IMG/VR virus record: IMGVR_UViG_3300045988_047031
Coordinates: 1-61,038 of that record
Reading direction: 5' to 3' (one strand)
Length of the DNA stretch: 61,038 nucleotides
Origin: a virus
In this document: positions 4,427-45,645 of the stretch, in pieces
Position numbering within the stretch: the first letter of the stretch is position 1
Layout of the letters: every line of letters begins with the position of its first letter
The notes under the pieces: model-generated
The model's input: only the letters and a program-made list of their open reading frames with translations
Database searches by the model: none
Told to the model about the DNA's origin: nothing
Translations under genes and position numbers: made by a program

Positions 4427-4918
4427 ATGGTAAATCAATCACAAATCACACTTGAAAACGTTCGCGTTATCTACCCTAACTTCGCTGGTCGTGAATCTGA
4501 GTACAATACAAAAGGTTCACGTGAGTTCGGCATCGCCTTGGATCCTGCTCTTGCTGAGGAACTTGCCGCTCAAGGACTAAATGTTAAGTTTCCTACTGAA
4601 GACAAACCAAACCGTCCTGCTTATTTGCCAGCCACTCTATCTAATGGCCCTGAAATTCAACCATGGATTAAGCTGGTTCTGGTAAACCAAGGTAAAGGTA
4701 CTATCCTTAATAATGCAGATACTAATCAACTTGCTATGCTGGACGAAGTTACAGCTGGCGCACTTGCTAATGTAATCATTAATCCTTACAACTGGACTGC
4801 CGCTGGTCGCTCTGGAATCAAGGCTTATGTGAATAAGCTATACGTCTATATTGATGATATTGACCCAAGCCTGGCTCCAGCTAAGGATAAGTTCGAACAG
4901 GATATTGAATTCATTTAA
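4427..4918 (+). CDS. ssDNA-binding protein-like (T7 gp2.5 / DUF2815-type)
   Basis: N-terminal ITLENVRVIYPNF and C-terminal NPYNWTAAGRSGIKAYVNKLYV pattern; acidic tail (DKFEQDIEFI); sits next to helicase and nucleases. Confidence 0.55.
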   Translation: MVNQSQITLENVRVIYPNFAGRESEYNTKGSREFGIALDPALAEELAAQGLNVKFPTEDKPNRPAYLPATLSNGPEIQPWIKLVLVNQGKGTILNNADTNQLAMLDEVTAGALANVIINPYNWTAAGRSGIKAYVNKLYVYIDDIDPSLAPAKDKFEQDIEFI

Positions 4919-4920
4919 TC

Positions 4921-6222
4921 ATGATACCCCATAAACTGGGTAGTATCGCACTAAAACCCAAGCAATTTGAAGCATGCGGGAAGTTAAAGAACGGCTCTAT
5001 ATTAATGGGAGGTGTTGGCTCAGGTAAGACATTTACGTCTATATTCTGGGCCGCCTCCCAATACGGAGCTTCTTTTTTTACAAAAGACAAGCCTCTTATT
5101 GTTATCACCACTGCCATGAAGCGTGACCTTATCGAGTTAGGTAAGGATAAACCGGATTGGCAAAGCTCTCTGGAGGCCTGCGGTATTACTAATTATATAG
5201 TAGACTCTTGGCAGAACATTGAGAAATACCAACATATAACCGACTCTGTCTTCATATTCGATGAGCAGAGGGTTGTTGGTTATGGTAAATGGGGTAAGGC
5301 TTTTATCCGCACATGTTGGAAGAATAACAAATGGATACTGTTATCTGCCACACCAGGCGATGTCTGGATGGATTATATGACAATATTCATAGCTAATAAA
5401 TTCTATAGGAATAAAACGGATTTCACATCTCGTCATGTTGTATGGGATCCTTATGTTAAATTCCCTAAGGTTAAGAAGTATATTGGTACCGCTGTTCTTG
5501 AGAAATACAGGAATCAAATCGTTGTACCTATGGATGATGATCGTGAGACTGTCCGCCATAGGGAATATCTATATGCTGAGTATGATGCTTTGATGTTGAA
5601 AGACTTGGCTGATACAAGATGGAACCCATTTACTGACGAACCTATATTGAATATTGCCGAATACACACAACTAGTTCGGCGCATCGTCAACACTTCCCCA
5701 GACAGAATTAGGTTGGCTGAGAAGTATATTAAAGAACATGATAAGGTTATTGTATTCTACAACTTCAATTACGAGTTGGAGATATTAAAAGATATCTGCG
5801 AACGTAACAACCTATTATATAAAGAATGGAACGGTAATAAACATGAGCACATTCCTCAAGAAGACTCTTGGGTATATCTTGTTCAATACACAGCAGGAGC
5901 CGAGGGATGGAATTGTATTACTACTGACAATATTCTATTCTATTCTGTTAATTATTCTTATCGTAAAATGGAACAAGCGGAAGGCCGAATAGACCGTTCT
6001 AACACGCCGTTCAAAGACCTTTACTATATATATCTGACGTCGTCTGCCAAAGTTGATAAGGATATTCTAAAGGCTGTTAAAGATAAGAAGAGATTTACAG
6101 AAGCCGCATGGGCGAAGAAACAAGGTTTTACACCTTATGATGATTATATTGATAATTTAGAGAAGGGATGGTTGTATGGCGTCGATACCTTTGGAGAAGG
6201 ATTACCAGGCAAGTCTTCTTAG
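4921..6222 (+). CDS. SF2 (SNF2/DEAD-like) helicase
   Basis: Walker A GGVGSGKT, DEQ box (IFDEQ), LLSATPG, motif VI QAEGRIDR. Confidence 0.8.
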   Translation: MIPHKLGSIALKPKQFEACGKLKNGSILMGGVGSGKTFTSIFWAASQYGASFFTKDKPLIVITTAMKRDLIELGKDKPDWQSSLEACGITNYIVDSWQNIEKYQHITDSVFIFDEQRVVGYGKWGKAFIRTCWKNNKWILLSATPGDVWMDYMTIFIANKFYRNKTDFTSRHVVWDPYVKFPKVKKYIGTAVLEKYRNQIVVPMDDDRETVRHREYLYAEYDALMLKDLADTRWNPFTDEPILNIAEYTQLVRRIVNTSPDRIRLAEKYIKEHDKVIVFYNFNYELEILKDICERNNLLYKEWNGNKHEHIPQEDSWVYLVQYTAGAEGWNCITTDNILFYSVNYSYRKMEQAEGRIDRSNTPFKDLYYIYLTSSAKVDKDILKAVKDKKRFTEAAWAKKQGFTPYDDYIDNLEKGWLYGVDTFGEGLPGKSS

Positions 6223-6508
6223 AAGGCTGCGTAAGGCTTATAGGAGCCGCATATTAGCGACTAAGACTGACCCTGGGTCGGTACAAGGGATACCTGATTT
6301 GATCGTTATATGCGATTCTAAATACGCTCTATTGGAAGTTAAACGCTCTGCCAACGCTTCTAAAAGACCTAATCAAGACTATTATATAGAGAAATTTGGA
6401 CAACATAGTTTTACATCATTCATTTATCCTGAGAATGAAACAGATGTTATATATGAAATGTGTGATTTCTTTGGTCTTGACTTCAATTTATTTCTGAAAG
6501 AAAAGTAG
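6176..6508 (+). CDS. VRR-NUC domain nuclease
   Basis: GIPDLIVICDSKYALLEVKR (D...E-x-K restriction-fold core); typical position after the SNF2 helicase. Confidence 0.7.
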   Translation: MASIPLEKDYQASLLRRLRKAYRSRILATKTDPGSVQGIPDLIVICDSKYALLEVKRSANASKRPNQDYYIEKFGQHSFTSFIYPENETDVIYEMCDFFGLDFNLFLKEK

Positions 6509-6544: not shown

Positions 6545-7153
6545 ATGGATTGGATACCACATTGGAACTTGGCTGGGAAACATGCATTCTTATCCCCGTC
6601 AGGTTATTCATGGCTTGGTTATGATGCTGAAAAAATGGCTAAATCCTATGAGAACAAACAGAACGTTGCTCGTGGGACAGCCTTGCATGAGATGGCATCG
6701 CAATTAATTAAGTCTAAAACAGAATTAGCGCCTAAAAAGAAGGCTCTTAACCTGTTTGTCAACGATTGTATTAGGGACGGCATGTCTTCTGAGGTACTTT
6801 TATACTACTCAGACCATTGTTTTGGTACTGCAGACGGTATTAAATGGGACTCAGACCAGCTTGAATTACGTATTTACGACCTAAAAACCGGCGTATCTAA
6901 GCCATCTTTCAAGCAATTAGATATCTATGCCGCTCTATTTTGCTTAGAATATGGGGTAAATCCTAAGAAAATTACCATTATTCAGCGCCTATATCAAGGG
7001 AATGGCTTCCAAGAACAGGTGACTGTCAAGGATAAAGCTCGTGTTGAGGGTGAAAATCCCGGTAATATCGCTTGGATTATGTCGCATATTAAGCAAATGA
7101 GTAAAATATTAGAGGAAAAAGAGGCTGAAATCAGGCCATTTAAGTTCTGGTAG
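6545..7153 (+). CDS. PD-(D/E)XK exonuclease (RecB/Cas4-like, DUF2800-type)
   Basis: GTADGI ... IYDLKTG ... QLDIYA motif series; AAAGGAG RBS 6 nt upstream of ATG 6545. Confidence 0.6.
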   Translation: MDWIPHWNLAGKHAFLSPSGYSWLGYDAEKMAKSYENKQNVARGTALHEMASQLIKSKTELAPKKKALNLFVNDCIRDGMSSEVLLYYSDHCFGTADGIKWDSDQLELRIYDLKTGVSKPSFKQLDIYAALFCLEYGVNPKKITIIQRLYQGNGFQEQVTVKDKARVEGENPGNIAWIMSHIKQMSKILEEKEAEIRPFKFW

Positions 7154-7361
7154 AGCTTGAATTGGTTGGATATTATAGGAAAAATTGGCTATTTTTGGTC
7201 GATTTTCATTCTACAATTGTCGTTTTCGGCTAATTTGCCCCTGACAAAAGTGGCTCAAAACCCTGGAATTTCCCCAAATTTCCCCAAATCAAACTTGGGG
7301 ATTTGCCAAAAAACGTGGGGAAAATGGGTGTTTTTGGGCCATTTCCCCAAATCAGGGGGTA

Positions 7362-7493
7362 TTTTGTGCCACGTTTTGAGCCACTTTTTTAGGCCTATTT
7401 TTGCTATAATGTTATAGTATTTTGGACTAGTTTTTGGCGTGATTTTTAGATGTTTTCAGACGTCGAAAAAGTGGCTCAAAACGTGGCACAAAA
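7362..7493. repeat. 28-bp perfect inverted repeat (arms 7362-7389 / 7466-7493)
   Basis: ttttgtgccacgttttgagccacttttt versus its exact reverse complement; the 76-bp spacer contains TGcTATAAT; partial third copy aaaagtggctcaaaac at 7246-7261. Confidence 0.95.
7402..7410 (+). promoter_or_regulatory. extended -10 box TGcTATAAT (candidate host sigma-A promoter)
   Basis: exact TGnTATAAT; part of the 22-nt direct repeat tatttttgctataatNttatag (7396-7417 and 7639-7660). Confidence 0.4.
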
Positions 7494-7644
7494 CTCTGGT
7501 AAGTTTGGGGAAATTGGTGTTTTCCCATGGTTTTCCCCAAGAAATTTCGCCAATCCCCAGATTAAAGTTGGGGAAAATGGTGAAGAGTTGTCAGGGGCAA
7601 ATTGAGCAAAAAGGGGTCTTTTTGGCCTGTTTTTGGGGTATTTT

Positions 7645-7653
7645 TGCTATAAT
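7645..7653 (+). promoter_or_regulatory. extended -10 box TGcTATAAT (candidate host sigma-A promoter)
   Basis: second copy of the 22-nt repeat. Confidence 0.4.
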
Positions 7654-7659
7654 TTTATA

Positions 7660-7911
7660 GTTTTCCCCAAAATCCCACGGTTTTTTCGGAAACTTTTTAA
7701 ATATATTAATTAGATTTTATATGACTTTTTATGGGTTATGTAGGGTTGTATGGTATTATGTTGTTTTATTATATATTTTATATTATTTTTAATAGTCTCG
7801 CGCGTACGGGAACTATAATCTTAAAAGTATAAAAAATGGTATAATAAACAAGGATTTTTAATCAATATATTTAAAAAGTTTCCGAAAAAACCGTGGGATT
7901 TTGGGGAAAAC
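7660..7911. repeat. 48-bp perfect inverted repeat (arms 7660-7707 / 7864-7911)
   Basis: gttttccccaaaatcccacggttttttcggaaactttttaaatatatt versus its exact reverse complement; 156-bp AT-rich spacer with a GC island (gtctcgcgcgtacggg). Confidence 0.95.
7847..7855 (+). promoter_or_regulatory. extended -10 box TGgTATAAT (candidate host sigma-A promoter)
   Basis: exact TGnTATAAT inside the spacer of the 48-bp inverted repeat. Confidence 0.35.
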
Positions 7912-8055
7912 CTATTTTTATATGGAAAATGGACATTTTTGATGATTTTTGTCTTGTTTTTCTGGTTTTGTGTTGTTTTAGTATAATTTAGGTAAAAATA
8001 CATATTTATTTTAGTATTCTGGTTGTATTTGGTATTTTCCAATGTTGCCGGATGT

Positions 8056-8495
8056 GAAACGATATATAAGCTTCAAACTGCTTAGGTTTGGGTTGAGTGT
8101 GAGTTAAGTTTTTACTTGTTTGGGTAAGCGTCATAACATAGGCATTGTTAAACCTCCTTACAAATGTTTCCTTTCTGAATTATTTACTCATATTCAAAAG
8201 TTGCAGTTTCTGTCATTTCCTGCAACAACCTCAAAAGTGTTCCTACTGGGTTTTCTTATTTTTCCCCAGTTGTTTATAAATCTCCTATTTCTATTTTTTG
8301 GTTAGGCATGTGGTACTAGCAGCAAACTACATGTTCGTGATAAAAGTGTGTTTCATAAACATGACGTAAATGGGTGGTGTGGTTGATGTTCCGATGTGTC
8401 CATACTACAGCCAATTTATCCAATCAAGTGTTGGTGAAGTTTGTACTTTCTCGCATATACCAAACCTAGGTGGTTTCAAGCTTATATATCATTTC
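8056..8495. repeat. 36-bp imperfect inverted repeat (arms 8056-8091 / 8460-8495, 31/36)
   Basis: gaaacgatatataagcttcaaactgcttaggtttgg versus ccaaacctaggtggtttcaagcttatatatcatttc. Confidence 0.8.
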
Positions 8496-8715
8496 GGTAT
8501 GTATTTTTATAGTTTTTATGGGTATTTCTCAGTTTTGGGAAGTTCGAGGCGCTATAATAGCCCTCAGAGGCCCATATTCGCCCTGTATCGCGTTTTATGT
8601 TGTAGTCCGGTAAATAGTTCATCTTTGGGCTAAAATGCTGTGATGGGCCTTATATGGCCTTATACGACGTGTTAGTATTTTGGGCATTTTTAAGATTTTT
8701 GAGGAGGATTACGCA

Positions 8716-11637
8716 TTGGATTTCGGAAATGTCTTCGGAAATGAAGAGGAAATCATGAATGATTTGAGCCAACTTTCGGATACCGGACGAGAAATTATCC
8801 TCAAACATATTGGGGTAAAACGGCGTTCCGGACGTTATCCTTGGGATCCATTTTTACATTTACCCAAGAATTATAAGTTCATCGAAGACCGTGATGAGCT
8901 TAAAAAACGGGGTCTAAGCGACAACGAAATCGCTAAAGAAATGGGTCTTTCAACAACAGTTTATCGTTCAAAAGTAACAATTGCCAAGGAAGAATTGAAA
9001 CAATATAACATGCAACGGATTGCAAAATTACAGTCTGAAGGTATGATTATTGACGATATTGCCAAGACAATTGGGACTACTGGACAGACTGTTCGTAACT
9101 ATTTGGAGGAAATTAAGAACCCAAATAAGAGTGCTCGGGCTAAAAGAGTGCAGACTGAAGCAGTCGCACAAACACTCGAAGACGCTGTAAAACGGTCAAA
9201 ATACATCGATGTTGGTAAGGGTGTGGAGATTCAGATGGGTATTTCCAAGGAAAAACTTAAGTCTGGACTCAATGCTTTGGTCGAATCTGGTGAATATGAG
9301 GTGCATAATCTACGTATTGCGCAGGTTACAGACAAGAATAATTCGACTCCAGTCAAGGTTTTGACGAAAAAAGGGGTAGAAAGAGCTGAAATCTATAAGA
9401 ATATGGATAAAGTTCGCCCTGTCGAAGAGTTTGCAATAAACGGCGATGCCCGTATGTTCCAACAAATGGAGCGCCCTAAGTCGATTGGATGGGATAGAGT
9501 GCATATTCGGTACGCAATTCCTGAAGGACAGAAGGGTCACGGGACAAATGACGATGGCGCAATGATGGACGGAGCCATGTTCTTACGTCCTGGTGTTAAA
9601 GATTTAAATCTTGGTAAAGCATCATATGCCCAAGTTCGTATTGCTGTAGGTGATACCCATTACCTTAAGGGTATGGCTTTATATGGTACCGAGGAAATGT
9701 TTAAAGGTATCCCTAAAGGTACCGATATTATCTTTAATACCAATAAGACAGCCAATAAGACGCCTCAGGAAGTCCTTAAAGAGCTTAAGAAGAACCCTGA
9801 AGGTGGGGCCCCTATCGAAGGCCCGAACCCGTTTGGAGCCACTGTAAAGCGCCAGAATACGCTTGTAGACAGTAACGGAAATCCTGTTTATAAACCTGGA
9901 GTTAAAGACCGGTTTGGAAATAAGGTTCCTCAAATTGGTTCTATCAATATCGTAAATGAGGAAGGCGATTGGGGTAGTTGGTCTAAAGCCTTATCTGCAC
10001 AGTTCCTTTCTAAACAACCTACGACTGTTGTGCATGAGCGATTGAAAGCAACTATGAAGCAGGTACAAGATGAGTATGAAAGTATTCAGAAAGTTACGAA
10101 TCCTGTTATCAAGAAACAATTGATGGAATCGTTTGTGTCTGACCTGGAATCTAAGCAGGTTCATATGAAAGCCGCAGCACCAAAAGGTTTCCAAGGACAT
10201 GTTATCTTACCGGTTCCTGATATGAAGGAGAATGAAGTATATGCTCCTAATTATAAGAATGGTGAGAAGGTTGTCCTTATCCGATATCCTCATGGTGGAC
10301 GATTTGAAATCCCTGAGCTGACTGTAAATAATAATAGTGTAGCTCGTAAGATGATATCTAAGGATAGCCCTGATGCTATTGGTATTCATCCGAAGGTTGC
10401 ATCTAAAATGTCTGGTGCCGACTTTGATGGGGATACTGCATATGTTATTCCAAATAATAAAGGGAAGTTTAAGAGTCGAGATAGTCTTAAAGAACTTAAG
10501 AACTTCGACCCTAACATGTATGCGGATAAGCCTGGTACATTTACACCAATTACTAAACGTTATCAACAAACTTTGATGGGTGTTGTATCAAACCTTATTA
10601 CTGATATGACATTACAAGGCGCCCCATCTAGTGAGATCGCGCGTGCTGTAAAACACTCAATGGTTGTTATTGATGCTGAGAAACATAAGCTTAATTATAG
10701 GCGCTCTGCTGAAGAGAATGGTATCGATGCATTAATGAAACGGTATATGACCCACGTTGATAGAGTTAACTATGGTGAGCTCGAGCGATATAATCCTAAG
10801 ACAAGACGGGTAGATAAAGTAATCGACCCTGAGAAATTAAAAAAGGATTTGACGCCGGGTAAAGAATATACCTCCGCCTCTACAATTATATCCCGCCATA
10901 AACAATCCGTTATTACTGACGGGTATCAAGTAGAAGTGCCCGATCCTAAATCTAAGTCGGGTGGTACTAAGATGGTATGGCGTAACAAGAAGGAAACTTA
11001 TCTTGTTAATATGGTTAAGGATGCCAATGTGTTCCTTGGCCCTAACGCAACCAAGACGGAGCATCATTATGCGGACTACATCAATGAACTCAAGGCCTTT
11101 AAGAATAAGGTCGACTCAGAAATGAGTGGTATCAAGATGCCGTCCCGTGATCCTAAAGCCGCTAAGATCTATGCAGAGGAAGTCCTGTCTATGAAGGACA
11201 AGGTCAACCAAGTAAAGATTAACCGTATCAAAGAACGCCAAGCGCAACGTATGGCTGAGGTATCAAGTAAAGCAGAGATTGCTCGTAGGTCAGAGGATGA
11301 AGTTCTGAAGAAGGATGAGATCTCTCGTATCAAACAACAAGCTTTGAACAAAGCAAGGTCTATGGTAGGTGCAGAAAGAACGCCCGTCACTATTACAGAT
11401 GACGAGTGGGATGCAGTACAATCTAATGCGGTATCGGGTACTCTACTGAAAGAACTGGTATCCTTTATGGATGATAGCCAGCTCAAGTCCCTTGCTACCC
11501 CAAGAGCTAACAAACAGATGACCGAAGCTCGTAAGAGTAAAGCTAAGGCCCTGCTTGCTAATGGCTATACAATAGCACAAGTAGCAGAAGCATTAGGTGT
11601 AAGTAGTTCTACTATTGGTAAGATCAAAGCTGAATAG
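8716..11637 (+). CDS. single-polypeptide two-barrel RNA polymerase candidate (YonO / RdRP-like) with HTH modules
   Basis: VVLIRYPHGG...IGIHPKVASKMSGADFDGDTAYVIP (DFDGD = nt 10420-10434) parallels the beta-prime NADFDGD barrel. Upstream YAQVRIAVGDTHYLKGMAL resembles the first barrel of RdRP/YonO-type enzymes. HTH-like segments lie near the N terminus (EIAKEMGLSTTVYRS, DIAKTIGTTGQTVRNYL) and the C terminus (IAQVAEALGVSSSTIGKI). Start uncertain: TTG 8680 (ORF track), TTG 8716 (GAGGAGGA RBS) or ATG 8755. Confidence 0.7.
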   Translation: MDFGNVFGNEEEIMNDLSQLSDTGREIILKHIGVKRRSGRYPWDPFLHLPKNYKFIEDRDELKKRGLSDNEIAKEMGLSTTVYRSKVTIAKEELKQYNMQRIAKLQSEGMIIDDIAKTIGTTGQTVRNYLEEIKNPNKSARAKRVQTEAVAQTLEDAVKRSKYIDVGKGVEIQMGISKEKLKSGLNALVESGEYEVHNLRIAQVTDKNNSTPVKVLTKKGVERAEIYKNMDKVRPVEEFAINGDARMFQQMERPKSIGWDRVHIRYAIPEGQKGHGTNDDGAMMDGAMFLRPGVKDLNLGKASYAQVRIAVGDTHYLKGMALYGTEEMFKGIPKGTDIIFNTNKTANKTPQEVLKELKKNPEGGAPIEGPNPFGATVKRQNTLVDSNGNPVYKPGVKDRFGNKVPQIGSINIVNEEGDWGSWSKALSAQFLSKQPTTVVHERLKATMKQVQDEYESIQKVTNPVIKKQLMESFVSDLESKQVHMKAAAPKGFQGHVILPVPDMKENEVYAPNYKNGEKVVLIRYPHGGRFEIPELTVNNNSVARKMISKDSPDAIGIHPKVASKMSGADFDGDTAYVIPNNKGKFKSRDSLKELKNFDPNMYADKPGTFTPITKRYQQTLMGVVSNLITDMTLQGAPSSEIARAVKHSMVVIDAEKHKLNYRRSAEENGIDALMKRYMTHVDRVNYGELERYNPKTRRVDKVIDPEKLKKDLTPGKEYTSASTIISRHKQSVITDGYQVEVPDPKSKSGGTKMVWRNKKETYLVNMVKDANVFLGPNATKTEHHYADYINELKAFKNKVDSEMSGIKMPSRDPKAAKIYAEEVLSMKDKVNQVKINRIKERQAQRMAEVSSKAEIARRSEDEVLKKDEISRIKQQALNKARSMVGAERTPVTITDDEWDAVQSNAVSGTLLKELVSFMDDSQLKSLATPRANKQMTEARKSKAKALLANGYTIAQVAEALGVSSSTIGKIKAE

Positions 11638-11719: not shown

Positions 11720-12001
11720 ATGCTAACAACTGAAGACAATCCGTTCAGTCCTTGGACACAGTACGAGTTATGGCGACGTTGGGACATCGATCATGGTTAC
11801 AACATCGAGTCTTACATCGCATCACTCATGCCAATGCTCAATGACAGTTCAATTGAAGACTATGAACACGCATGGTCGGTAGCAGTGTCTTCGATACTAG
11901 AACAGAACATCTTCGGAAACTTAAAACTTGTTCCAAAACCTGATGATTACGAAGAAGATCTTGAGTTTCTTAATGAAGATGAAGATGAAATAAAACTTTA
12001 G
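11720..12001 (+). CDS. small highly acidic protein (93 aa)
   Basis: AAAGGAGAG RBS; D/E-rich C terminus (DDYEEDLEFLNEDEDE). Confidence 0.65.
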   Translation: MLTTEDNPFSPWTQYELWRRWDIDHGYNIESYIASLMPMLNDSSIEDYEHAWSVAVSSILEQNIFGNLKLVPKPDDYEEDLEFLNEDEDEIKL

Positions 12002-12257
12002 ACCCCGGGGGGGTGCCTATTACAGGCCTTCCTCTTCAGCATCGGGGCTGGTATCAAAAATTCCCCCGTTGCGATTTTTTTCAAAATGGTTTTGGATTTC
12101 TACAGGCCGATTCTAGGATTGGTTTGTGCTAGAGGGGTACTTTGCTCCTTTCAACCCCTATAGTATATAGCGGGCGTTAGACAGGACTGATGGTCGTTGT
12201 TGAAAACTGACCTAAAGTCGGTCTATAGGAGTCCAAAACTTATGAAAAAGGGTTCTA
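12002..12257. other. non-coding region upstream of the packaging genes (candidate cos/pac region)
   Basis: 256 nt without an ORF; ccccggggggg tract at about 12004-12014; repeated tacaggcc (about 12020 and 12100); sits just before the HNH-TerL module. Confidence 0.35.
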
Positions 12258-12518
12258 ATGATAAAGAAAGAGAGGAGAACTATCGTGGCAGCAGCAAAAA
12301 CTACCTATAAAGTTGTAGCACCTGCCGGGGTATACATTCGTTCAACCCCTGAGCAATCAGAAGAAAACGTCGTACGACTTGCTAATCGTGATGAGCGTCT
12401 AGTCGTCGTGAATGTTGGTGACGAATGGCTTCAAACCGATGAAGGTTATGTCATGAACCAACCTTATATCGTTGAACCCGACACGGTCAAACCACGGAAG
12501 AAAGGAGAGGCTGAGTAA
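12258..12518 (+). CDS. small SH3-like domain protein
   Basis: YKVVAPAGVYIRSTPEQSEENVVRLANRDERLVVVNVGDEWLQTDEGYV pattern; alternative GTG start at 12285 has the better RBS (AGAGGAG). Confidence 0.55.
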   Translation: MIKKERRTIVAAAKTTYKVVAPAGVYIRSTPEQSEENVVRLANRDERLVVVNVGDEWLQTDEGYVMNQPYIVEPDTVKPRKKGEAE

Positions 12519-12520: not shown

Positions 12521-12871
12521 ATGACGAATGAAGTAGCTGAATTCGATAACCAGAGAGCCTACAGACCTGCACGTTCGCCTGAACAGCGTGAATTGCAAAT
12601 GATGGAACTCGCTATGGGTCTATCGGAAAAGCGTCTTCAGGAAGGAACCGCATCGGCCTCTGAGATTGTCTACTGGCTAAACCAAGCAAGTCCTAAGGCT
12701 CGTCTTGAACGTAAGCAGTTGGAATTACAAGCAGAGTTGTTACAAGCTCGTATCGATTTGATTCGTAGCGACCAACAATCAGACCTTGACTTCAAACAAG
12801 CATACAAGGCATTCCAAGGATATTCTGGTAAGCCGGCAGAAGTCATTGATGGTGAATTCTATGAGCAATAG
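12521..12871 (+). CDS. hypothetical protein (116 aa); small terminase possible by position only
   Basis: GGAGAGG RBS; coiled-coil-like; no motif recognised. Confidence 0.6.
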   Translation: MTNEVAEFDNQRAYRPARSPEQRELQMMELAMGLSEKRLQEGTASASEIVYWLNQASPKARLERKQLELQAELLQARIDLIRSDQQSDLDFKQAYKAFQGYSGKPAEVIDGEFYEQ

Positions 12872-13256
12872 GCTCACCTATACAGAAATGTCTAAACTTG
12901 AGTCATATACTGAGCGGTTGAATTATCTAAGACTTCGTGGCGTACATCATGAAGCGCCTAGAGAAATATCCAATCGGTTCTATAAATCTCATGCATGGCA
13001 ACAATGTCGTGCGGCTATTATACGGCGGGATTTGGCTCAAGACCTTGGTGTTAGGAAATTATATGTGGAAGGCCCGATTACGGTTCATCATATGAATCCA
13101 CTAACTAAGGAGGATATAGAAAACTTGACCGAGAACTGCTTCGATCCTGACGGACTGATCACGGTCTCTGACAGCACCCATAAACGTATCCACTATGATC
13201 AAAAGGAGTATCAAACATGGGTTGAACGTAAACCGGGTGACACGAAGTTATGGTAA
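12861..13256 (+). CDS. HNH endonuclease
   Basis: ITVHHMNPLTKEDIE ... VSDSTHKRIH (H-N-H core); ATG 12861 overlaps the previous stop; the ORF-track start at 12786 is inside the previous gene. Confidence 0.8.
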   Translation: MSNRLTYTEMSKLESYTERLNYLRLRGVHHEAPREISNRFYKSHAWQQCRAAIIRRDLAQDLGVRKLYVEGPITVHHMNPLTKEDIENLTENCFDPDGLITVSDSTHKRIHYDQKEYQTWVERKPGDTKLW

Positions 13257-15281: not shown

Positions 15282-17030
15282 GTGGTATTAAGTAATACTG
15301 CGGTTCCTGTCGAGTATGGCAGATTTCGGGACGCGGTATTGCGTGGTGAAATCCCTGTATGTCGTGAAGTCTCGATGCAAATGAACCGTATTGATAACGA
15401 TATCGCGAACCCGAATTATTATTACGACCCAGATGCGATACAAGGTTTTATCGATTTCTGTGAGAATGAGATGACCCTAGTCGATGGGCGTCCTTTAACA
15501 CTACTACCAACCTTTAGGTTATGGGCTGAGGATTTATTGGCATGGTTTGAATTTAAGGAAGAGAAGGTCTACGACCCCGAAACCGGAAATTTCAAAATAA
15601 TTAGACATAAGCGCAGACTACGGAACAAGCAATATCTCATTGTGGCTCGTGGTAATGCCAAGTCTTTATATGCCACGCTTCATCAGGCCTTTGGGCTTGT
15701 GATGGATACCAACTCAACCCAGCAAGTTACAACAGCCCCTACTATGGCACAAGCGGCAGAGGTTCTATATCCTTTTGCAACTGCTATAACTAGGGCAGGG
15801 AGCGCCGAGGAAGGATTTCCTTTGTTCCGTGTACTCACAAGAGGGCGGAATAAGGCTAGGACACAGAAGTCCCAGTCTCAGCTGGCTGTAACTAAGGACG
15901 GTATTGTTAATCGACTAACCAACTCTATTTTGGAAGTAAAACCAATGACCATTCCGAAACTCCAAGGTTCTCGTGCCAAATATGCAACGGTCGATGAATG
16001 GTTGTCAGGAGATATCAAGGAGAATGTAATCGGTGCACTTGAGCAATCTGCTTCTAAAGATGGTATCGATGATTACCTTATCCTAGCGGTATCTTCTGAG
16101 GGTACGGTTCGGGACTCTGTTGGTGACTCGATCAAACGCGAGCTTCTATCCATCTTGCGTGGTGAATACGAAGATCCGCATACATCTATTTGGTACTACC
16201 GTCTGGATGATGTTGCGGAAGTGGGTAATCCGGATATGTGGATGAAGGCTTGTCCTAATATTGGTATAACCGTCTCTTATGATGCATACCAGCGTGACGT
16301 TCGGCGTGCGGAATATTCACCAACGAATAGGAATGATATCCTAGCTAAAAGGTTTGGTATACCTGTCGAAGGTACGACATACTTCTTTACATTTGAAGAA
16401 ACGGAGCTTCATCGAAGGCAGAACTTCAGGCGTATGGAAGTATCTATGGGTATGGACGCCTCTCAAGGTGACGACTTCTGGGCATTTACATGGCTGGTTC
16501 CTTTAGGACGAGGTCGATATGGTGTTCAGACAAGGTCGTATGTTTCAGAGGTTAAATATCTACGTTTAAACTCGGCCACACAAGCTAAGTATGACCAGCT
16601 CGTAGCTGAGGGTACTCTAATAATCATGCCGGGCAACTATCTCGATTGGGAAATGGTCTATGATGATGTAGAACGTTATATCGAAGAGATGGAATGGACT
16701 ATCGTATCTTTTGGTTATGACCCATATAACGCGGCCGAATTTATTGACCGCTGGACTATGGAGAATGGCGATGTCGGTGTTGAAGTGGTACGACAAGGTG
16801 TAAGAACTGAGTCAGTACCTTTAGGCGAGATTAAGAATATGGCAACTTCTAGAGATCTTATATTCTTTGAGGAACTTATGAAGTATGCTATGGGTAACGC
16901 TGTTGTTATCCAAGATAATAATGGTAACTATAAATTATCCAAGATGCGTAGTGATGAAAAGATCGATAACGTCGCCGCATTAATGGATGCTTGGGTTGCC
17001 TATAAACGAAATAAGGAGGCATTCTTGTAG
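15282..17030 (+). CDS. terL: terminase large subunit
   Basis: GTG start after AAAGGAG; ATPase motifs (VARGNAKS, ATVDEW) and nuclease-type MGMDASQGDD; followed by the portal gene. Confidence 0.88.
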   Translation: MVLSNTAVPVEYGRFRDAVLRGEIPVCREVSMQMNRIDNDIANPNYYYDPDAIQGFIDFCENEMTLVDGRPLTLLPTFRLWAEDLLAWFEFKEEKVYDPETGNFKIIRHKRRLRNKQYLIVARGNAKSLYATLHQAFGLVMDTNSTQQVTTAPTMAQAAEVLYPFATAITRAGSAEEGFPLFRVLTRGRNKARTQKSQSQLAVTKDGIVNRLTNSILEVKPMTIPKLQGSRAKYATVDEWLSGDIKENVIGALEQSASKDGIDDYLILAVSSEGTVRDSVGDSIKRELLSILRGEYEDPHTSIWYYRLDDVAEVGNPDMWMKACPNIGITVSYDAYQRDVRRAEYSPTNRNDILAKRFGIPVEGTTYFFTFEETELHRRQNFRRMEVSMGMDASQGDDFWAFTWLVPLGRGRYGVQTRSYVSEVKYLRLNSATQAKYDQLVAEGTLIIMPGNYLDWEMVYDDVERYIEEMEWTIVSFGYDPYNAAEFIDRWTMENGDVGVEVVRQGVRTESVPLGEIKNMATSRDLIFFEELMKYAMGNAVVIQDNNGNYKLSKMRSDEKIDNVAALMDAWVAYKRNKEAFL

Positions 17031-40950: not shown

Positions 40951-40996
40951 GCGTTGTGTGAGTGAAATCTACAACGCTTATTTTTTTTTATTTTTT
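40951..40996 (+). terminator. intrinsic terminator after the lysis cassette
   Basis: gcgttgt-13 nt-acaacgc followed by a long T tract. Confidence 0.6.
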
Positions 40997-41021
40997 ACAG
41001 CTCTCTATATAGAAAGAGAGG
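40994..41021 (+). promoter_or_regulatory. phage promoter-like element, copy b (tttacagctctctatatagaaagagagg)
   Basis: consensus copy; ATG 41030 is 8 nt after GAGAGG. Confidence 0.6.
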
Positions 41022-41029
41022 TATATGAT

Positions 41030-41377
41030 ATGCAAAAACTTGTTGAAAATTATAATTCTTGTAGGGAGAGATACCTTAACGCACCTACTTTTGGAAATGA
41101 CTTTATATATATTTGTTATTACGATATGTATATTGACGCATGTTCTAAGATATTGGACTGTTTAAATAACCTTAGGGTTGTTTATGATTGTGATCGAGAA
41201 TTGGGTCTCGAAGAAGCAATCCTTAAAGCAAAACTATTGAAATTTAAATGGTTTCATATGGATGGACGTATGTTCAATAAAATAAGAAGACAAATACTTA
41301 TAAAGCAAACCAAAAAGCAGATGCTGGAAGTAGACACCCTTACGATGTTCATAATCAAAGCATATTTGGAGCAATAA
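41030..41377 (+). CDS. hypothetical protein (115 aa)
   Basis: ATG 41030 after GAGAGGTA; the ORF-track N-terminal extension (from 40958) is a translation of the terminator/promoter. Confidence 0.7.
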   Translation: MQKLVENYNSCRERYLNAPTFGNDFIYICYYDMYIDACSKILDCLNNLRVVYDCDRELGLEEAILKAKLLKFKWFHMDGRMFNKIRRQILIKQTKKQMLEVDTLTMFIIKAYLEQ

Positions 41378-41396
41378 ACATTGCTCTTTTTCTTTT
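41369..41396 (+). terminator. intrinsic terminator
   Basis: gagcaa-taaaca-ttgctc plus tttttctttt. Confidence 0.65.
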
Positions 41397-41402
41397 AAAT
41401 TT

Positions 41403-41430
41403 TTTACACGTATCTATATAGAATACTAAT
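41403..41430 (+). promoter_or_regulatory. phage promoter-like element, copy c (tttacacgtatctatatagaatactaat)
   Basis: same TTTACA-N10-TAGAA geometry. Confidence 0.55.
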
Positions 41431-41454
41431 GGATATTTTAAAGGAGGAATTAAT

Positions 41455-41565
41455 ATGCAATATGTTATTGGGACATTGATTGTGTTGTGGATCCTAAGTT
41501 ACGGATTCACTAGTATTTTGAAAGGGATCGGTGGATTTCTATTAAGACTGTTTGGTCGATATTAG
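41455..41565 (+). CDS. micro-ORF, 36-aa hydrophobic peptide
   Basis: AAAGGAGG RBS 7 nt upstream; MQYVIGTLIVLWILSYGFTSILKGIGGFLLRLFGRY; bracketed by promoter element and terminator; below the ORF-track cutoff. Confidence 0.6.
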   Translation: MQYVIGTLIVLWILSYGFTSILKGIGGFLLRLFGRY

Positions 41566-41591
41566 AGATTTCACCAATCTCTTTTCTTTTT
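41564..41591 (+). terminator. intrinsic terminator
   Basis: agagatt-tcacc-aatctct plus tttctttttc. Confidence 0.65.
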
Positions 41592-41597
41592 CAAAAC

Positions 41598-41625
41598 TTT
41601 ACATCTATCTATATAGAATAAAGAA
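41598..41625 (+). promoter_or_regulatory. phage promoter-like element, copy d (tttacatctatctatatagaataaagaa)
   Basis: same geometry. Confidence 0.55.
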
Positions 41626-41639
41626 ATGAGGTAGTTCAA

Positions 41640-41927
41640 ATGAAGAACAAATTATTTATGTTGAAGTTGGAAGATCGCAATACAGTTCGCGATAACTTGG
41701 ACGCAATATTGAGTCGTATCCATGACTATATTGCAGACAAATACTTGGAAGGTGAAGTTGATATTGAAATCACGAATATTACAATCGTGAATTTCGGTAT
41801 TCAGGGGATCGATTTCCGAGCACTGTCTGGTAATCTAGATTTGGTTTATGGCAAACTATTGGAGTCCGGATATCATGCTGAACTATTTAGCGACGAAGAC
41901 ACTACATGGATTAAAGTGAGTGTTTAA
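41640..41927 (+). CDS. hypothetical protein (95 aa)
   Basis: GAGGTAG RBS; cassette bounded by terminators. Confidence 0.7.
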   Translation: MKNKLFMLKLEDRNTVRDNLDAILSRIHDYIADKYLEGEVDIEITNITIVNFGIQGIDFRALSGNLDLVYGKLLESGYHAELFSDEDTTWIKVSV

Positions 41928-41946
41928 TACACTCATTTCTTTTTTC
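41918..41946 (+). terminator. intrinsic terminator
   Basis: gagtgt-ttaat-acactc plus atttcttttttc. Confidence 0.6.
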
Positions 41947-41952
41947 AAAACA

Positions 41953-41980
41953 TTTACAGTTCTCTATATAGAAAGAGAGG
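41953..41980 (+). promoter_or_regulatory. phage promoter-like element, copy e (tttacagttctctatatagaaagagagg)
   Basis: consensus copy; ATG 41989 is 8 nt downstream. Confidence 0.6.
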
Positions 41981-41988
41981 TAGTCGAT

Positions 41989-42072
41989 ATGAACAAAAAG
42001 AATGAAGAAACCAAGGATATGACTTGGTGGCAATTTCTATTGGGTCTATGGTTTTTAGACCTATTTTTCTAA
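41989..42072 (+). CDS. micro-ORF, 27-aa peptide with hydrophobic C terminus
   Basis: MNKKNEETKDMTWWQFLLGLWFLDLFF; consensus promoter/RBS upstream, terminator downstream. Confidence 0.55.
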   Translation: MNKKNEETKDMTWWQFLLGLWFLDLFF

Positions 42073-42074
42073 AC

Positions 42075-42103
42075 GGAGACTACAAAGGTCTCCTATTTTT
42101 TTT
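42075..42103 (+). terminator. intrinsic terminator
   Basis: ggagac-tacaaag-gtctcc plus tattttttttt. Confidence 0.7.
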
Positions 42104-42118
42104 AAGAAAGGATATGTA

Positions 42119-42309
42119 ATGGAACAAACAAGGATACCGGATGCTAAAGAAATGGCAATAAAAAAGGGCTGTATGACGCATATAATGGAAGTAAATATGC
42201 TCTAAATGATAAACAGTTAATTAAATATCTAGAGGACGAACTTGGATATGAAGTAAGCGCCGGATATGAATACAACCTTAGATTATATGGGATTACACTA
42301 AAATGGTAA
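42119..42309 (+). CDS. small gene requiring a -1 frameshift at A_AAA_AAG (42160-42166)
   Basis: the 0-frame ORF (42119-42205) and a start-less 54-codon -1-frame ORF (42148-42309) overlap at the heptamer. The -1 ORF ends right at the next RBS. Fused product is about 63 aa. Confidence 0.5.
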
Positions 42310-42319
42310 AGGAGAATGT

Positions 42320-42634
42320 ATGACAACCAGATGGAAAGAACTAACGACGGTTATTGTCTCGGCCCTGATTTTTGTTACGATCTGCATTGCTCTAATTGAG
42401 ATTAATACAGCTAACAAGATCAATGAGCTGGAAAAAAAACATCAGAGAGAGGTTAAGACTCTAACTGAGGAACGCGACATGTATAAGAAGCGATGGGAAT
42501 TTCGAGATGACGTTGCTACTTATTACTACGATGAATATCTCGATTTGAAGGAAAAATACGAAAATCTTAAACTTGCATTAGGAAAAACGGAGGATGAAGA
42601 AAATGATAAAACTCAAAACAGCAGCGGAAATTAG
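42320..42634 (+). CDS. membrane-anchored coiled-coil protein (104 aa)
   Basis: AAAGGAG RBS; N-terminal TM (VIVSALIFVTICIALI). Confidence 0.7.
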   Translation: MTTRWKELTTVIVSALIFVTICIALIEINTANKINELEKKHQREVKTLTEERDMYKKRWEFRDDVATYYYDEYLDLKEKYENLKLALGKTEDEENDKTQNSSGN

Positions 42635-42971
42635 ACAGATGATTGCGGATAAACGGAGCGCAGTAAGGTCGGGAATTGACTTAACTAAGGTTTATGAAAA
42701 GGTAAACAATAGGTTAGAGAACCTTGAACTCGGCGCAACTAGTATTCTACTTTTAGCAAAATCAATTAGACCTGATGTCAATGTTCCAGATGAAGAATGG
42801 AAAGATTCTTTACAATTCATTTTTGATGAAATCCAAATCAAACTTGAAGATAACGGATATACTGTCCGCCCACATTATGGTTTAGGTTTTGGTAGTACAC
42901 CTCCTCGCATTGGATTGATTATTTACTGGGATCCAAAAGACCTGCCGGATGACGGCGAAAGGGAAGAATAA
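42603..42971 (+). CDS. hypothetical protein (about 122 aa)
   Basis: ACGGAGG RBS 9 nt before ATG 42603 (ATG 42594 also possible). Confidence 0.65.
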   Translation: MIKLKTAAEIRQMIADKRSAVRSGIDLTKVYEKVNNRLENLELGATSILLLAKSIRPDVNVPDEEWKDSLQFIFDEIQIKLEDNGYTVRPHYGLGFGSTPPRIGLIIYWDPKDLPDDGEREE

Positions 42972-42974
42972 ATA

Positions 42975-43002
42975 TTTACAACCCTCCTAATAGAAAGAGA
43001 GG
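42975..43002 (+). promoter_or_regulatory. phage promoter-like element, copy f (tttacaaccctcctaatagaaagagagg)
   Basis: same geometry; ATG 43011 is 8 nt downstream. Confidence 0.55.
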
Positions 43003-43010
43003 ACATTATT

Positions 43011-43187
43011 ATGCGTAAATTTTTAAGATTTGTTGGTTTTCGTTGTCTTGCTGCATACGCTGTTATGGAGGAAGCTTATATTGATAGGCTTGTGAAAAAC
43101 GGTTATGTTGAACAAGATGCTGCGAAACACAACGAACGTCTTGAGGTTACAAGATACGTTCTAACTAAATTGAAGAAAGAGTATTAA
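43011..43187 (+). CDS. hypothetical protein (58 aa)
   Basis: just below the ORF-track cutoff; promoter/RBS element upstream, terminator hairpin overlapping the stop. Confidence 0.6.
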   Translation: MRKFLRFVGFRCLAAYAVMEEAYIDRLVKNGYVEQDAAKHNERLEVTRYVLTKLKKEY

Positions 43188-43210
43188 TACAATACTCTTT
43201 TAATTTTTTA
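43177..43210 (+). terminator. intrinsic terminator
   Basis: 9-bp stem aagagtatt / aatactctt, loop aatac, then tttaatttttt. Confidence 0.6.
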
Positions 43211-43234
43211 CAACTGTCTATATAGAAAGGAAGG
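43207..43234 (+). promoter_or_regulatory. phage promoter-like element, copy g (tttacaactgtctatatagaaaggaagg)
   Basis: same geometry; ATG 43242 is 7 nt downstream. Confidence 0.55.
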
Positions 43235-43241
43235 AAACGTT

Positions 43242-43583
43242 ATGAAACTTTTTAAGAAAAAACACGTTGCTAAAATTGAAGAAACTATCGAGGCTAAACT
43301 CGATGAACTGAATACCCAACTGGCTGAAGTACCAACGGGTAGTGAGGAAGAAGTCAAAATCTTGGACGATATTGATTTTCTTACCAAAACATTGACGGAT
43401 ATTAAAGTCCGCCATATGCAAGGTAAAGAAAAGAAGCTCGAACCACAGGTTAAGGCGGCTATCATCACTACTGTTGGTGGTGCTATTGCTAGTATTGCAG
43501 GTATCCTAATCATCAGGGATTATGAAGCGGAAGACGGTCTCTTCACTTCTAGCGCAAAGAATTTTATTAAGAAGCTGTACTAA
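43242..43583 (+). CDS. hypothetical protein with C-terminal TM (113 aa)
   Basis: ORF after promoter element g; AAIITTVGGAIASIAGILII helix. Confidence 0.7.
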   Translation: MKLFKKKHVAKIEETIEAKLDELNTQLAEVPTGSEEEVKILDDIDFLTKTLTDIKVRHMQGKEKKLEPQVKAAIITTVGGAIASIAGILIIRDYEAEDGLFTSSAKNFIKKLY

Positions 43584-43609
43584 TGTACACTTCTTTCTTT
43601 TTTTTTTTT
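43576..43609 (+). terminator. short hairpin plus tacacttctttc-T12 element
   Basis: tgtac-taat-gtaca; 24 nt (43586-43609) are identical to 45609-45632. Confidence 0.45.
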
Positions 43610-43617
43610 GGTATAAT
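43609..43617 (+). promoter_or_regulatory. extended -10 box TGgTATAAT
   Basis: exact TGnTATAAT directly after the T tract, 19 nt before ATG 43636. Confidence 0.35.
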
Positions 43618-43635
43618 ATAAAAGGAGCAATATTT

Positions 43636-44142
43636 ATGGAGTATGTTGATAAGACAGAGCACCCAACGATTTACAGCCTAATGGAGTATGATGTAGGTTT
43701 TAGAAAGCTGTTTTATCCTTATATCTTTGGGATTATGGCGGATAACCATCTTGAATGTAATGATTATGATTTTGAGATGTTCAAGGTCATCTTTATTTCA
43801 ACTATGGTTATTATCCAAAATTATTATACTTCTGACCTTATCAAGAAGTATGAGGAAGATATCAGAGGTTTGTATTTCGCATATTTCAAGGTTCGAACAA
43901 TAACCAATGTTGGGCAGGACGGTATCGATAAGATTACGACTCGTATTCGTACTAAGATTACAGACTTTGATTTATCACCAACTGATGCAGACTTTGAAAA
44001 TTGTATCGAAATGGTAAAAACAGATATGCCTCGAGTCAATAACTACGAAACATGGGATGTTATTGTATACAAAATGGAATATTTCCGTGATTGCTACTAT
44101 AACATAATTCGTATATTGCATCAAGCTAAAGGAGGGAATTGA
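43636..44142 (+). CDS. hypothetical protein (168 aa)
   Basis: AAAGGAG RBS before ATG 43636; the ORF-track extension from 43522 overlaps the previous gene and terminator. Confidence 0.7.
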   Translation: MEYVDKTEHPTIYSLMEYDVGFRKLFYPYIFGIMADNHLECNDYDFEMFKVIFISTMVIIQNYYTSDLIKKYEEDIRGLYFAYFKVRTITNVGQDGIDKITTRIRTKITDFDLSPTDADFENCIEMVKTDMPRVNNYETWDVIVYKMEYFRDCYYNIIRILHQAKGGN

Positions 44143-44462
44143 TGTCAGAAAGTACGGCACGTATCGCCCAAACCAAGAACCGTGAGTTGCGTCTTAAAAA
44201 GATGAACGACCTATCTTTTATTCATTTCATCACAACCGAAGCTGTTGTTTTGCTATATTTAACACAATATATGATGGAAACAGCTGAAGAATGGGTTGAC
44301 TGGTGTACTGAGGAGTATGGCGGTAATTGGTATTGTGGCCATAACTTTGCCCAACTAGGCGCAGACCATAAATCTTATATTGAAGAGTCAATCAAAAACG
44401 CAAATAAAATTCTTGATGAATTCATTATCGAAGGAGGATATGAACATGAAATTCAACCTTAA
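44142..44462 (+). CDS. hypothetical protein (106 aa)
   Basis: AAAGGAGGG RBS; ATG overlaps the previous stop. Confidence 0.7.
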   Translation: MSESTARIAQTKNRELRLKKMNDLSFIHFITTEAVVLLYLTQYMMETAEEWVDWCTEEYGGNWYCGHNFAQLGADHKSYIEESIKNANKILDEFIIEGGYEHEIQP

Positions 44463-45173: not shown

Positions 45174-45178
45174 AAATT

Positions 45179-45206: not shown

Positions 45207-45222
45207 AAAGGAGGACATTAAT

Positions 45223-45632: not shown

Positions 45633-45645
45633 GAAGGAGAACTTG

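Follow-up and report, generated by a model that had tools for sequence, protein, structure and literature searches.

What would a phage do with 1,562 bp of non-coding DNA, crowded with inverted repeats and placed directly ahead of the gene for its own RNA polymerase? The question is raised by the gap at positions 7154-8715 of IMG/VR record IMGVR_UViG_3300045988_047031, a stretch of 61,038 bases (hereafter the window) that represents a complete, circularly permuted phage genome with all its genes on the + strand, and in which this gap is by far the largest. The phage is uncultured and, judging by sequence, is related to Lactococcus phage 1706. An earlier note on the same DNA, referred to below as the original prediction, had seen here a replication origin, a promoter switch, or both. 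The region is clearly functional, and it belongs to the familiar class of phage control or origin regions. The reading favoured here, to which a probability of about 0.45 is given, is that it would constitute a cluster of promoters for the host RNA polymerase, set within palindromic, operator-like arrays, and feeding the phage polymerase gene and probably the late genes too.

Sites, promoters and palindromic modules

Three families of short sites, named here A, B and C (B through its core), are essentially exclusive to positions 7232-7908. Site B, in its exact form TTCCCCAA/TTGGGGAA, has eight copies in the 61-kb window, all within 7270-7908, when 2.4 would be expected genome-wide and none of 100 shuffles reaches eight; its core TCCCCA is found 12 times in 7271-7907, once at 8263 and three times in the rest of the genome. 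The earlier count of about 13 copies of the 8-mer thus holds for the 6-mer core and not for the exact 8-mer; the 10-bp tandem that was also described is indeed present, at 7267-7289. An avoidance of TCCCCA elsewhere was considered and rejected, because CCCC is rare genome-wide and an order-4 Markov model expects 5.6 copies outside the region against 4 observed. Site A, TTTTGNNCCAC, which the earlier reader had not named, has five of its six genome copies in the region (0.45 expected), each 28-bp arm described below being made of two tandem copies, and site C, AATTTGCCCCTGAC, has two copies. A separate, iteron-like tandem array (TATTATTACGA x 3.8, 96% matches) lies at 1970-2011, in a 200-bp gap between two open reading frames (ORFs) of unknown function, and is a candidate for an alternative origin or an operator.

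The sites are arranged within inverted repeats. Of the genome's seven inverted repeats with arms of at least 16 nucleotides (nt) within 500 bp of each other, six fall in 7.2-8.5 kb, and a repeat search recovers the perfect arms of 16, 28 and 48 bp where the original prediction had placed them. The 16-bp repeat extends to 25 nt at 84%; that of 28 bp, whose arms are 104 bp apart from centre to centre, has a 76-bp spacer with TGCTATAAT at 7402-7410; and that of 48 bp (7660-7707 / 7864-7911, spacer of 156 bp) extends to 53 nt at 98%, with a spacer of 146 nt. Such arms had been called far beyond chance, and by our own arithmetic a perfect 28-bp repeat within 500 bp would be expected about 4e-10 times in 61 kb. 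A 22-nt direct repeat, likewise announced, is found at 7396-7417 / 7639-7660 with one mismatch, as the core of a 38-nt repeat at 84%.

Three modules can be distinguished (Table 1). M1 is an imperfect palindrome of about 400 bp whose arms mirror the order of the C, A and B sites; they are 64% identical over 178 aligned columns, with a score of 39 against -27 +/- 6.4 in shuffles. In M2, which is bounded by the 53-nt arms, the 40-bp windows starting at 7694 and 7754 reach 90% and 95% AT. The M3 segment is not alignable between groups of relatives, each group having inverted repeats of its own there, which flank about 225-420 bp. The closest relatives of the window (loci L003, L004, L008, L009, L013 and L015) carry an extra A-type site, AAAAAGTGGCACAAAA, right after the 53-nt right arm, which the window does not have (alignment A1, columns about 700-725).

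Within and beside these palindromes lie the candidate promoters. Three of the five extended -10 sites of the genome, TGNTATAAT, are in the region (7402-7410, 7645-7653 and 7837-7845), all on the + strand; each consists of TG, one further base and a TATAAT-like hexamer, reads in the sense of the genes that follow it, and is conserved relative to its flanks, with the exception of the third (P3). T-tracts phased at about 11 bp accompany P1, on both of its sides, and P2. The start predicted for P2, at about 7660, is the first base of the 53-nt arm, and the distance from its -10 to the repeat is 12 nt in 24/24 of the genomes compared below. All the candidate promoters of the region point rightward, as do all the genes. 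Of the symmetric switch formerly proposed for the polymerase gene there remain, therefore, the conserved extended -10 elements directed at that gene, but not the bidirectional symmetry. The only other strong extended -10 on the + strand, TTTTTTTGGTATAAT (43603-43617), comes after a long T run and belongs to the early region, where it precedes a gene that starts at 43637.

The arrangement recurs in relatives. A relative of the phage polymerase is encoded in 43 IMG/VR loci (42 at 85-98% identity, and L044 at 37%), 23 of which cover the region from end to end and can be aligned with the window, their nucleotide identity to it being 77-90%; with the window included, this makes 24 genomes. Across these, divergence between the motifs is 23-30%, and the elements that are invariant or nearly so are the C sites, the flanks of the A sites, the B cores, P1 (TTTTTGCTATAAT, identical in 24/24 genomes between variable flanks), the -10 of P2 (kept as TAtAAT, or as TAAAAT in more distant relatives) and a GC island of 18-21 nt with its TATAAT. 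Distances are maintained as well: the C sites are 357-359 bp apart in all loci, the right C site and the GC island are always separated by 206 bp where both are present (24 loci), and from the start of the M2 left arm to the GC island there are 136 nt in 24/24 genomes despite six indel columns, as the indels compensate one another. Overall, the spacing is constant to within 1 bp.

This pattern is a phylogenetic footprint, that of a conserved cis-acting element. Because the sites are invariant and their spacing fixed, a double-stranded nucleoprotein assembly would be expected, with the sites held in helical register, to which the phased T-tracts are well suited; a fixed spacing also points to a protein-DNA architecture rather than to a loop of free length. 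The original prediction had spoken of a cruciform- or protein-bound architecture. The protein-bound form agrees with the fixed spacing in the 24 genomes; the cruciform is unlikely, given the kinetics of extrusion with spacers of 76 and 146 nt.

Many contigs of the phage group begin or end exactly at the 28-bp or the 53-nt arms (L005, L007, L010-L012, L014, L016, L018, L020, L023, L028, L034 and L041). De Bruijn assemblers break at inverted repeats longer than k, and these ends, considered as physical genome ends, were rejected as assembly breaks, the contigs being circular permutations with varied ends. Breaks of this kind could fragment or mis-orient such genomes in databases. A mobile palindromic element was also rejected: when viral contigs were scanned with a 14-mer of the C site, pairs about 357 bp apart appeared only in this phage group, and the single hits were due to chance.

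Table 1. Features of the region and of the window to which the text refers, in window coordinates
Feature	Position	Strand	Remarks
Non-coding region	7154..8715		Between Cas4-like exonuclease gene (6545-7153) and RNA polymerase gene
Module M1, imperfect palindrome of ~400 bp	7223..7632		Arms 7223-7389 / 7466-7632; 76-bp asymmetric centre
Site C, left copy, AATTTGCCCCTGACAA	7232..7247	+	Outer 16-bp inverted repeat; invariant in 24/24 genomes
Site A, solitary copy	7250..7260	-	Largely co-varies with right arm of 28-bp repeat
Left B array	7270..7350		TTCCCCAA on + at 7270, 7280, 7343; core TGGGGA (- orientation) at 7296, 7316
28-bp left arm	7362..7389	+	Two tandem A sites, 7362-7372 and 7374-7384
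Candidate promoter P1, T-tract and extended -10, TTTTTGCTATAAT	7398..7410	+	-10 hexamer 7405-7410; in 76-bp centre of 28-bp repeat
28-bp right arm	7466..7493	-	Two tandem A sites, 7471-7481 and 7483-7493
Right B array, mirror of left	7505..7575		7505 (-), 7533 (+), 7554 (+, core only), 7568 (-)
Site C, right copy (inverted)	7588..7603	-	Outer 16-bp inverted repeat
Candidate promoter P2, TATTTTTGCTATAAT, duplicate of P1	7639..7653	+	-10 hexamer 7648-7653; preceded by three T5GG tracts, 11-bp spacing
Module M2, left arm, 53 nt (48 perfect here)	7660..7712	+	B site 7663-7670; also ATCCCAC
Module M2, centre	7713..7858		AT-rich; nested imperfect repeat 7765-7792 / 7821-7848
GC island and -10-like hexamer, TCGCGCGTACGGGAACTATAAT	7798..7819	+	Unique in genome; TATAAT 7814-7819
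Promoter-like P3, TGGTATAAT	7837..7845	+	Not conserved in more distant relatives
Module M2, right arm	7859..7911	-	B site 7901-7908
Module M3	8056..8495		Inverted repeat 8056-8091 / 8460-8495, 36 nt, 86%, flanking 368 bp
Conserved polymerase leader, ~160 nt	8553..8715	+	Begins at -10-like TATAAT 8554-8559
Upstream gene block	4427-4918; 4921-6222; 6176-6508; 6545-7153		Single-strand annealing protein (SSAP); helicase; VRR-NUC nuclease; Cas4-like exonuclease
Winged helix-turn-helix (wHTH) protein, 101 aa	58182-58487		Candidate DNA-binding protein
21-nt motif sites	40994, 41403, 41598, 41953, 43207, 45179, 45893, 55256, 58773, 60235	+	

Evolution of the 28-bp and 53-nt repeats

The two inner repeats differ in the way their symmetry has been treated by evolution. 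That of 28 bp is perfect in 19 of the 24 genomes, with at least five different arm sequences; 98.6% of its cells are paired, six pairs show compensatory changes, and its covariation (0.176, against 0.061 in shuffles) was attained by none of 500 shuffles. The outer and inner A sites of one arm often differ from each other, each being equal to its mirror partner. What is preserved in this repeat, in other words, is the symmetry and not merely the motif. In the 53-nt repeat of the relatives, on the contrary, 86.9% of the cells are paired, there is no covariation, and 4-8 mismatches are fixed, four positions being mismatched identically in 22 of the 23. The 48-bp perfection seen in the window, which had been taken as a sign of a cruciform- or protein-bound architecture, does not indicate a requirement for function and is a lineage-specific, mosaic homogenisation of both arms. 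The comparison of arm symmetry that had been suggested as a check is accordingly answered in two ways: in the 28-bp repeat symmetry is kept by compensatory change, and the 48-bp perfection is found in this genome only.

As the 53-nt neighbour is not routinely homogenised, the 28-bp pattern is read here as selection for complementarity, although it could also have been produced by frequent conversion through the phage's own SSAP and exonuclease. The mismatches have no G:U preference (13 G:T, 36 A:C and 130 other in the 53-nt repeat) and hence indicate nothing specific to RNA. Only one feature of the region remains odd, namely this 28-bp repeat with its compensatory changes and a promoter inside the loop.

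In the 23 relatives both 53-nt arms contain TTTTCAGAAA(A/C) (alignment A1, columns 463-476 and 662-675), which we take to resemble the core of the Firmicutes CodY box, while the arms of the window (7681-7694 / 7877-7890) read TTTTCGGAAA, a change that affects both arms and preserves their pairing. A CodY box, suggested by the TTTTCAGAAAA of the relatives, was discarded, as the resemblance is not maintained in the window.

Gene setting, transcription map and wider family

The region stands where it had been described, between the replication and recombination genes and the RNA polymerase gene: on one side ends a block formed by the SSAP, helicase, VRR-NUC nuclease and Cas4-like exonuclease genes, whose order is identical in phages 1706 and P092, and on the other begins the polymerase gene. 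The earlier description of 1.5 kb free of genes also agrees with what is found in the relatives. ORFs occur mechanically within 7154-8715, but none is kept in position, frame or strand, and the coding potential of those at 7157-7417, 7439-7660, 8120-8305 and 8370-8633 was rejected, since none is conserved and single-base indels shift their frames in relatives. No tRNA genes were found; the DNA of the region has no match among 50,697 phage records (megablast, blastn), nor has the genome a close relative among them at the DNA level; and the literature found contains nothing on the region, its papers dealing only with the polymerase family or the replicase fusion mentioned below.

The polymerase ORF (8680-11637, 985 aa) matches PHROG 4291 with E = 0, its true start being likely the TTG at 8716, with a ribosome-binding site GAGGAGG at 8701-8707. 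The protein shares 48-51% identity with the 'RNA-dependent RNA polymerase'-like protein of Lactococcus phages 1706, P092, P078, P118 and P162, and about 39% with large helix-turn-helix (HTH) proteins that many phages of Arthrobacter, Gordonia and Streptomyces encode at their right end. According to a preprint (10.1101/842583), it is a two-barrel polymerase of the YonO/RdRP-like kind, which has a DxDGD loop and carries HTH domains at its two ends. In 1706 the homologue is annotated as a structural protein of the virion. Bacterial genomes yielded no relative of the polymerase, and hence no information on host or prophage could be drawn from them. Upstream of the gene, the leader of about 160 nt is kept across all the relatives, the preceding 7912-8550 not being alignable; one pairing predicted within it would cover the ribosome-binding site, without support from covariation.

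Domains and functions were sought in 37 distinct ORFs, which do not include every small ORF. At 55935-57365, in the early region, a 476-aa protein combines a bacterial Ig domain, a collagen-binding domain and an LPXTG cell-wall anchor, and this anchored, adhesin-like protein implies a Gram-positive host. An early gene at 57600-58178 has a DUF1599 'nucleotide modification associated' domain, a hint that DNA or nucleotides may be modified. A GC-rich non-coding stretch, GACCCCGGGGGGGTGCC, at 12001-12258, comes behind the polymerase gene and a single small ORF and is likely the cos region; the deposited 1706 genome ends in the same relative place.

From 8716 to 41377 the genes follow one another without a gap, up to a strong terminator at 41368-41387, before which no + strand terminator was found after the polymerase gene. 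A bipartite motif of 21 nt, TTTACA-N5-CTATATAGAA, has ten copies in the genome (0.23 expected), all on the + strand and only within 40994-60255, just upstream of early genes and often right after terminator-like hairpins; none is present in the region under study or in the late genes of 8.7-41 kb. Its spacing is unfit for a promoter of the housekeeping sigma factor, which makes it a candidate promoter for the two-HTH, YonO-like phage polymerase. As neither the region nor the late genes contain it, the host-type promoters are the only start signals that can be recognised before the polymerase, structural and lysis genes. Simple k-mer counting gave no equivalent of the motif in phage 1706. By analogy, the cascade could be T7-like, with the host polymerase making the phage polymerase first, or it could be N4-like, with an injected virion polymerase transcribing the early genes and the host polymerase the late ones, as the structural-protein annotation in 1706 might suggest. 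In the case of YonO itself, one promoter drives a single long late operon (PMC5467207).

In the wider family, 1706 has 450 bp of non-coding DNA directly before its polymerase gene, with ACTTCGGGA iterons, including 10-bp tandem pairs, two perfect direct repeats of 36 nt, and an inverted repeat of 41 nt, AT-rich at its centre and enclosing a nested repeat, which ends 22 nt before the polymerase start codon. The iterons of P092 are of the TCCCGGA type and precede a small ORF and the genes for lysin and polymerase; one of them is directly adjacent to a TTGACA. Iterons of their own are also found in three IMG/VR lineages that are more distant: AAAAGTGCAATTA in L064, CTAAAAATGC in a 10-bp tandem in L065, and GGGGGTAAAAA at 11 bp in L070. 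In L044 the polymerase gene abuts the exonuclease gene, and a non-coding region with repeats comes after the polymerase instead. An iteron-rich region at the junction of the replication and late modules is, then, a trait of the family, and the palindromic layout is specific to this genus-level group. To our knowledge, neither the 1706 nor the P092 region has been characterised so far.

Readings of the region and known systems

If the region is a transcription control hub, it would be placed at the junction between the replication and recombination genes and those for RNA polymerase, structure and lysis. The extended -10 promoters P1 and P2, together with the conserved -10 at 7814-7819, would fire rightward into the polymerase gene, each from within or beside a palindromic scaffold of B (12 core copies), A (five) and C (two) sites at fixed distances. 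The phased T-tracts should curve the DNA, and one or more DNA-binding proteins of the phage could occupy the arrays, wrapping or looping the DNA around the promoters, in such a way that the bound arrays would set, by repression or by activation, the timing with which the host RNA polymerase starts on the polymerase gene and the late unit. Transcripts that arrive from the early genes may, in addition, be stopped or processed in the region. This proposal is supported by the conservation of P1, P2 and the GC-island TATAAT, by the long transcription unit that the region heads, by the fixed geometry, and by the recurrence of the arrangement in the family.

Several points weigh against it. None of the extended -10 sites of the region has a -35 match, although promoters of this type usually do without one. 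A fast-evolving segment (7912-8550, about 640-800 bp) separates M1 and M2 from the polymerase gene, and a proximal -10-like element at 8554 heads the conserved leader, which means that P1 and P2 may be dispensable for the gene. In L044, the polymerase gene that abuts the exonuclease gene indicates that the region is not needed for polymerase expression across the wider family. A palindrome of 400 bp, moreover, exceeds what a one-directional promoter would need, its strand symmetry being more natural for bidirectional replication; at least 12 sites are many for a transcription factor; and simple operator binding does not predict the compensatory evolution of the 28-bp arms.

Some of these objections lead to the main rival, a replication origin, a reading that is quite conceivable, if on balance doubtful, and that is compatible with the promoters. 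The phage encodes a replicase in which an SF3 helicase, an AEP primase and a PolB polymerase are fused (50205-54350), a fusion of the kind described for gp55 of 1706 (PMC4889955), which would use this origin. The initiator, for which this replicase and the wHTH protein at 58182-58487 are candidates, would bind the mirrored B, A and C iterons, with melting of the AT core of M2 or of the M1 centre; the embedded promoters would provide transcriptional activation or an RNA primer, and the palindrome would present the signals on both strands, allowing bidirectional initiation. Clustered short repeated sites and an adjacent AT-rich, unwinding-type element are both found, the former exclusive to the locus and the latter next to a GC island; the large palindrome is real and rigidly spaced; almost all the large inverted repeats of the genome are gathered here, directly after the recombination block; and the iterons of the relatives are lineage-specific, as would be expected of initiator-origin pairs that co-evolve. 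Palindromic arrays of sites beside AT-rich DNA are known from the ori and crr of P4 (8-bp iterons in both orientations, bound by the primase-helicase), the oriV of RSF1010 and the origins of SV40 and HSV, and the origins of T7, T4 and lactococcal c2 combine a promoter with an unwinding element. On the other side, the cumulative GC skew is monotonic and uninformative, all genes being on one strand, the replicase gene is about 14 kb away, the iterons of 1706 are mostly direct repeats, the palindrome not being family-wide, and the array at 1970-2011 offers another candidate.

The remaining explanations start from the repeats themselves. That they act as hairpins of RNA or single-stranded DNA, whether as RNase III sites or terminators setting early read-through transcripts apart from the polymerase and late unit, as a 5' hairpin of the P2 transcript (a stabiliser or a non-coding RNA), or as signals for the primase or the phage polymerase, is unlikely. 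The pairing of the 28-bp stem, kept through six compensatory pairs beside a 53-nt neighbour that is not homogenised, the coincidence of the P2 start with the first base of that neighbour, and the very stable folds predicted (-105.6 kcal/mol, z -13.8; as DNA -35.6 kcal/mol, z -10.5) speak for it; yet the left 28-bp arm has no visible promoter ahead of it, P1 being inside the loop, the mismatches are indifferent to G:U, the 53-nt stem has fixed mismatches and no covariation, the loops are constant to the base pair, which is unusual for hairpin loops, neither stem is followed by a conserved U-tract, and no Rfam family is matched, only microRNA hairpin models below threshold. More improbable still is a particular form of this idea, in which the 28-bp hairpin with its loop promoter and the 53-nt hairpin at the first base of P2 would be functional structures used by the YonO/RdRP-like polymerase: they could serve as hairpin-type promoters or entry sites, as for the virion RNA polymerase of N4, the enzyme being packaged in the virion if the 1706 annotation holds, or, as RNA, they could be templates or primers for an enzyme that has RNA-copying relatives in eukaryotes. 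If true, this would link a two-barrel phage polymerase to the recognition of structured DNA or RNA. Invertible promoter switches, in which a recombinase would flip promoter-bearing segments, and packaging or partition sites can be considered effectively excluded. For the former there are the -10 elements flanked by both the 28-bp and the 53-nt repeats, and the contigs that end at the arms; but such ends are the expected artefact of repeats longer than the assembler k-mer, one orientation of the spacers is found in all 24 aligned genomes, the GC-island probe TCTCGCGCGTACGGGAAC, an 18-mer, matches 26 loci of relatives, always on the + strand (in L017 and L037 the first bases of the probe differ, and the alignment shows the core of the island kept in the same orientation), and no recombinase was found among the 37 ORFs scanned. 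The latter, the least probable of all, would have in its favour the symmetric arrays of short repeats around a centre, which resemble the pac of P1. However, the region is about 5.5 kb upstream of the terminase and packaging genes, a GC-rich candidate cos, CCCCGGGGGGG, lies at 12001-12258, before the HNH endonuclease (12786-13256) and large terminase (15282-17030) genes, the deposited ends of 1706 come after its polymerase gene and not at its repeat region, and the ORFs scanned include no ParA or ParB. Nor, with spacers of 76 and 146 nt, is there a contiguous palindrome as in a hairpin-telomere resolution site of the telRL type, and no protelomerase gene was found among those ORFs.

The interest of the region lies in the access it gives to the transcription and replication programme of phages with a YonO-like polymerase. 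The 1706-like phages and many actinophage relatives share this single-chain RNA polymerase of the YonO/RdRP type as their signature, and the region is the clearest cis-regulatory landmark in such a genome, with host-type promoters beside the polymerase gene. If the control hub proposed here is real, there would be concrete sites, promoters and arms from which one could learn in what order the cascade runs, and whether this DNA also fires replication for an unusual enzyme, the helicase-primase-PolB fusion; if the region is only a usual origin or operator region, the result would be a useful annotation without surprise.

Among known systems, coliphage 186, with CI and its FL and FR sites, and the OL-OR of lambda also have a promoter flanked symmetrically by sets of operators at fixed, helically phased distances, but the window has far more sites, its promoters all run one way, and no repressor or integrase was found in it, for which reason the phage appears virulent. 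With the P4 ori/crr, the lambda ori and the RSF1010 oriV the region has in common a large number of short sites that face both ways and adjoin an AT-rich segment and a GC-rich island, and replicons with P4-type origins likewise encode their own SF3 helicase-primase; unlike in those origins, the arrays surround conserved promoters, and the candidate initiator gene is 14 kb away. The ori of lactococcal c2, with its essential early transcript, and that of the Sfi21 type in S. thermophilus are, as here, repeat-rich non-coding segments at a module boundary in siphoviruses of Firmicutes; they contain an active promoter, where those of the window are predicted, they have no sequence similarity to the region, and the latter is larger, with three palindromic modules.

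In T7, the A1-A3 cluster upstream of gene 1 consists, as would the promoters of the window, of strong tandem promoters for the host RNA polymerase at the head of a unit that begins with the phage RNA polymerase gene, and a separate family of phage-specific promoters of about 20 nt is found elsewhere in the genome. The promoters of the window differ in being embedded in palindromic arrays of sites, and the polymerase in being of the two-barrel YonO/RdRP-like kind with HTH domains, not of the T7 type; the structural annotation of the 1706 homologue would suggest the logic of N4 instead of that of T7. Within the family itself, the sequences of 1706 and P092 cannot be aligned with the region, the 1706 iterons run mostly in one direction, and lysis genes share the slot. 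Even so, 1706 and P092 have, in the same slot after the exonuclease gene, iterons of a similar core, TCCC[C/G][A/G]A, 10-bp tandem pairs among them, and in 1706 the polymerase gene is closely preceded by an inverted repeat that is nested and AT-rich at its centre.

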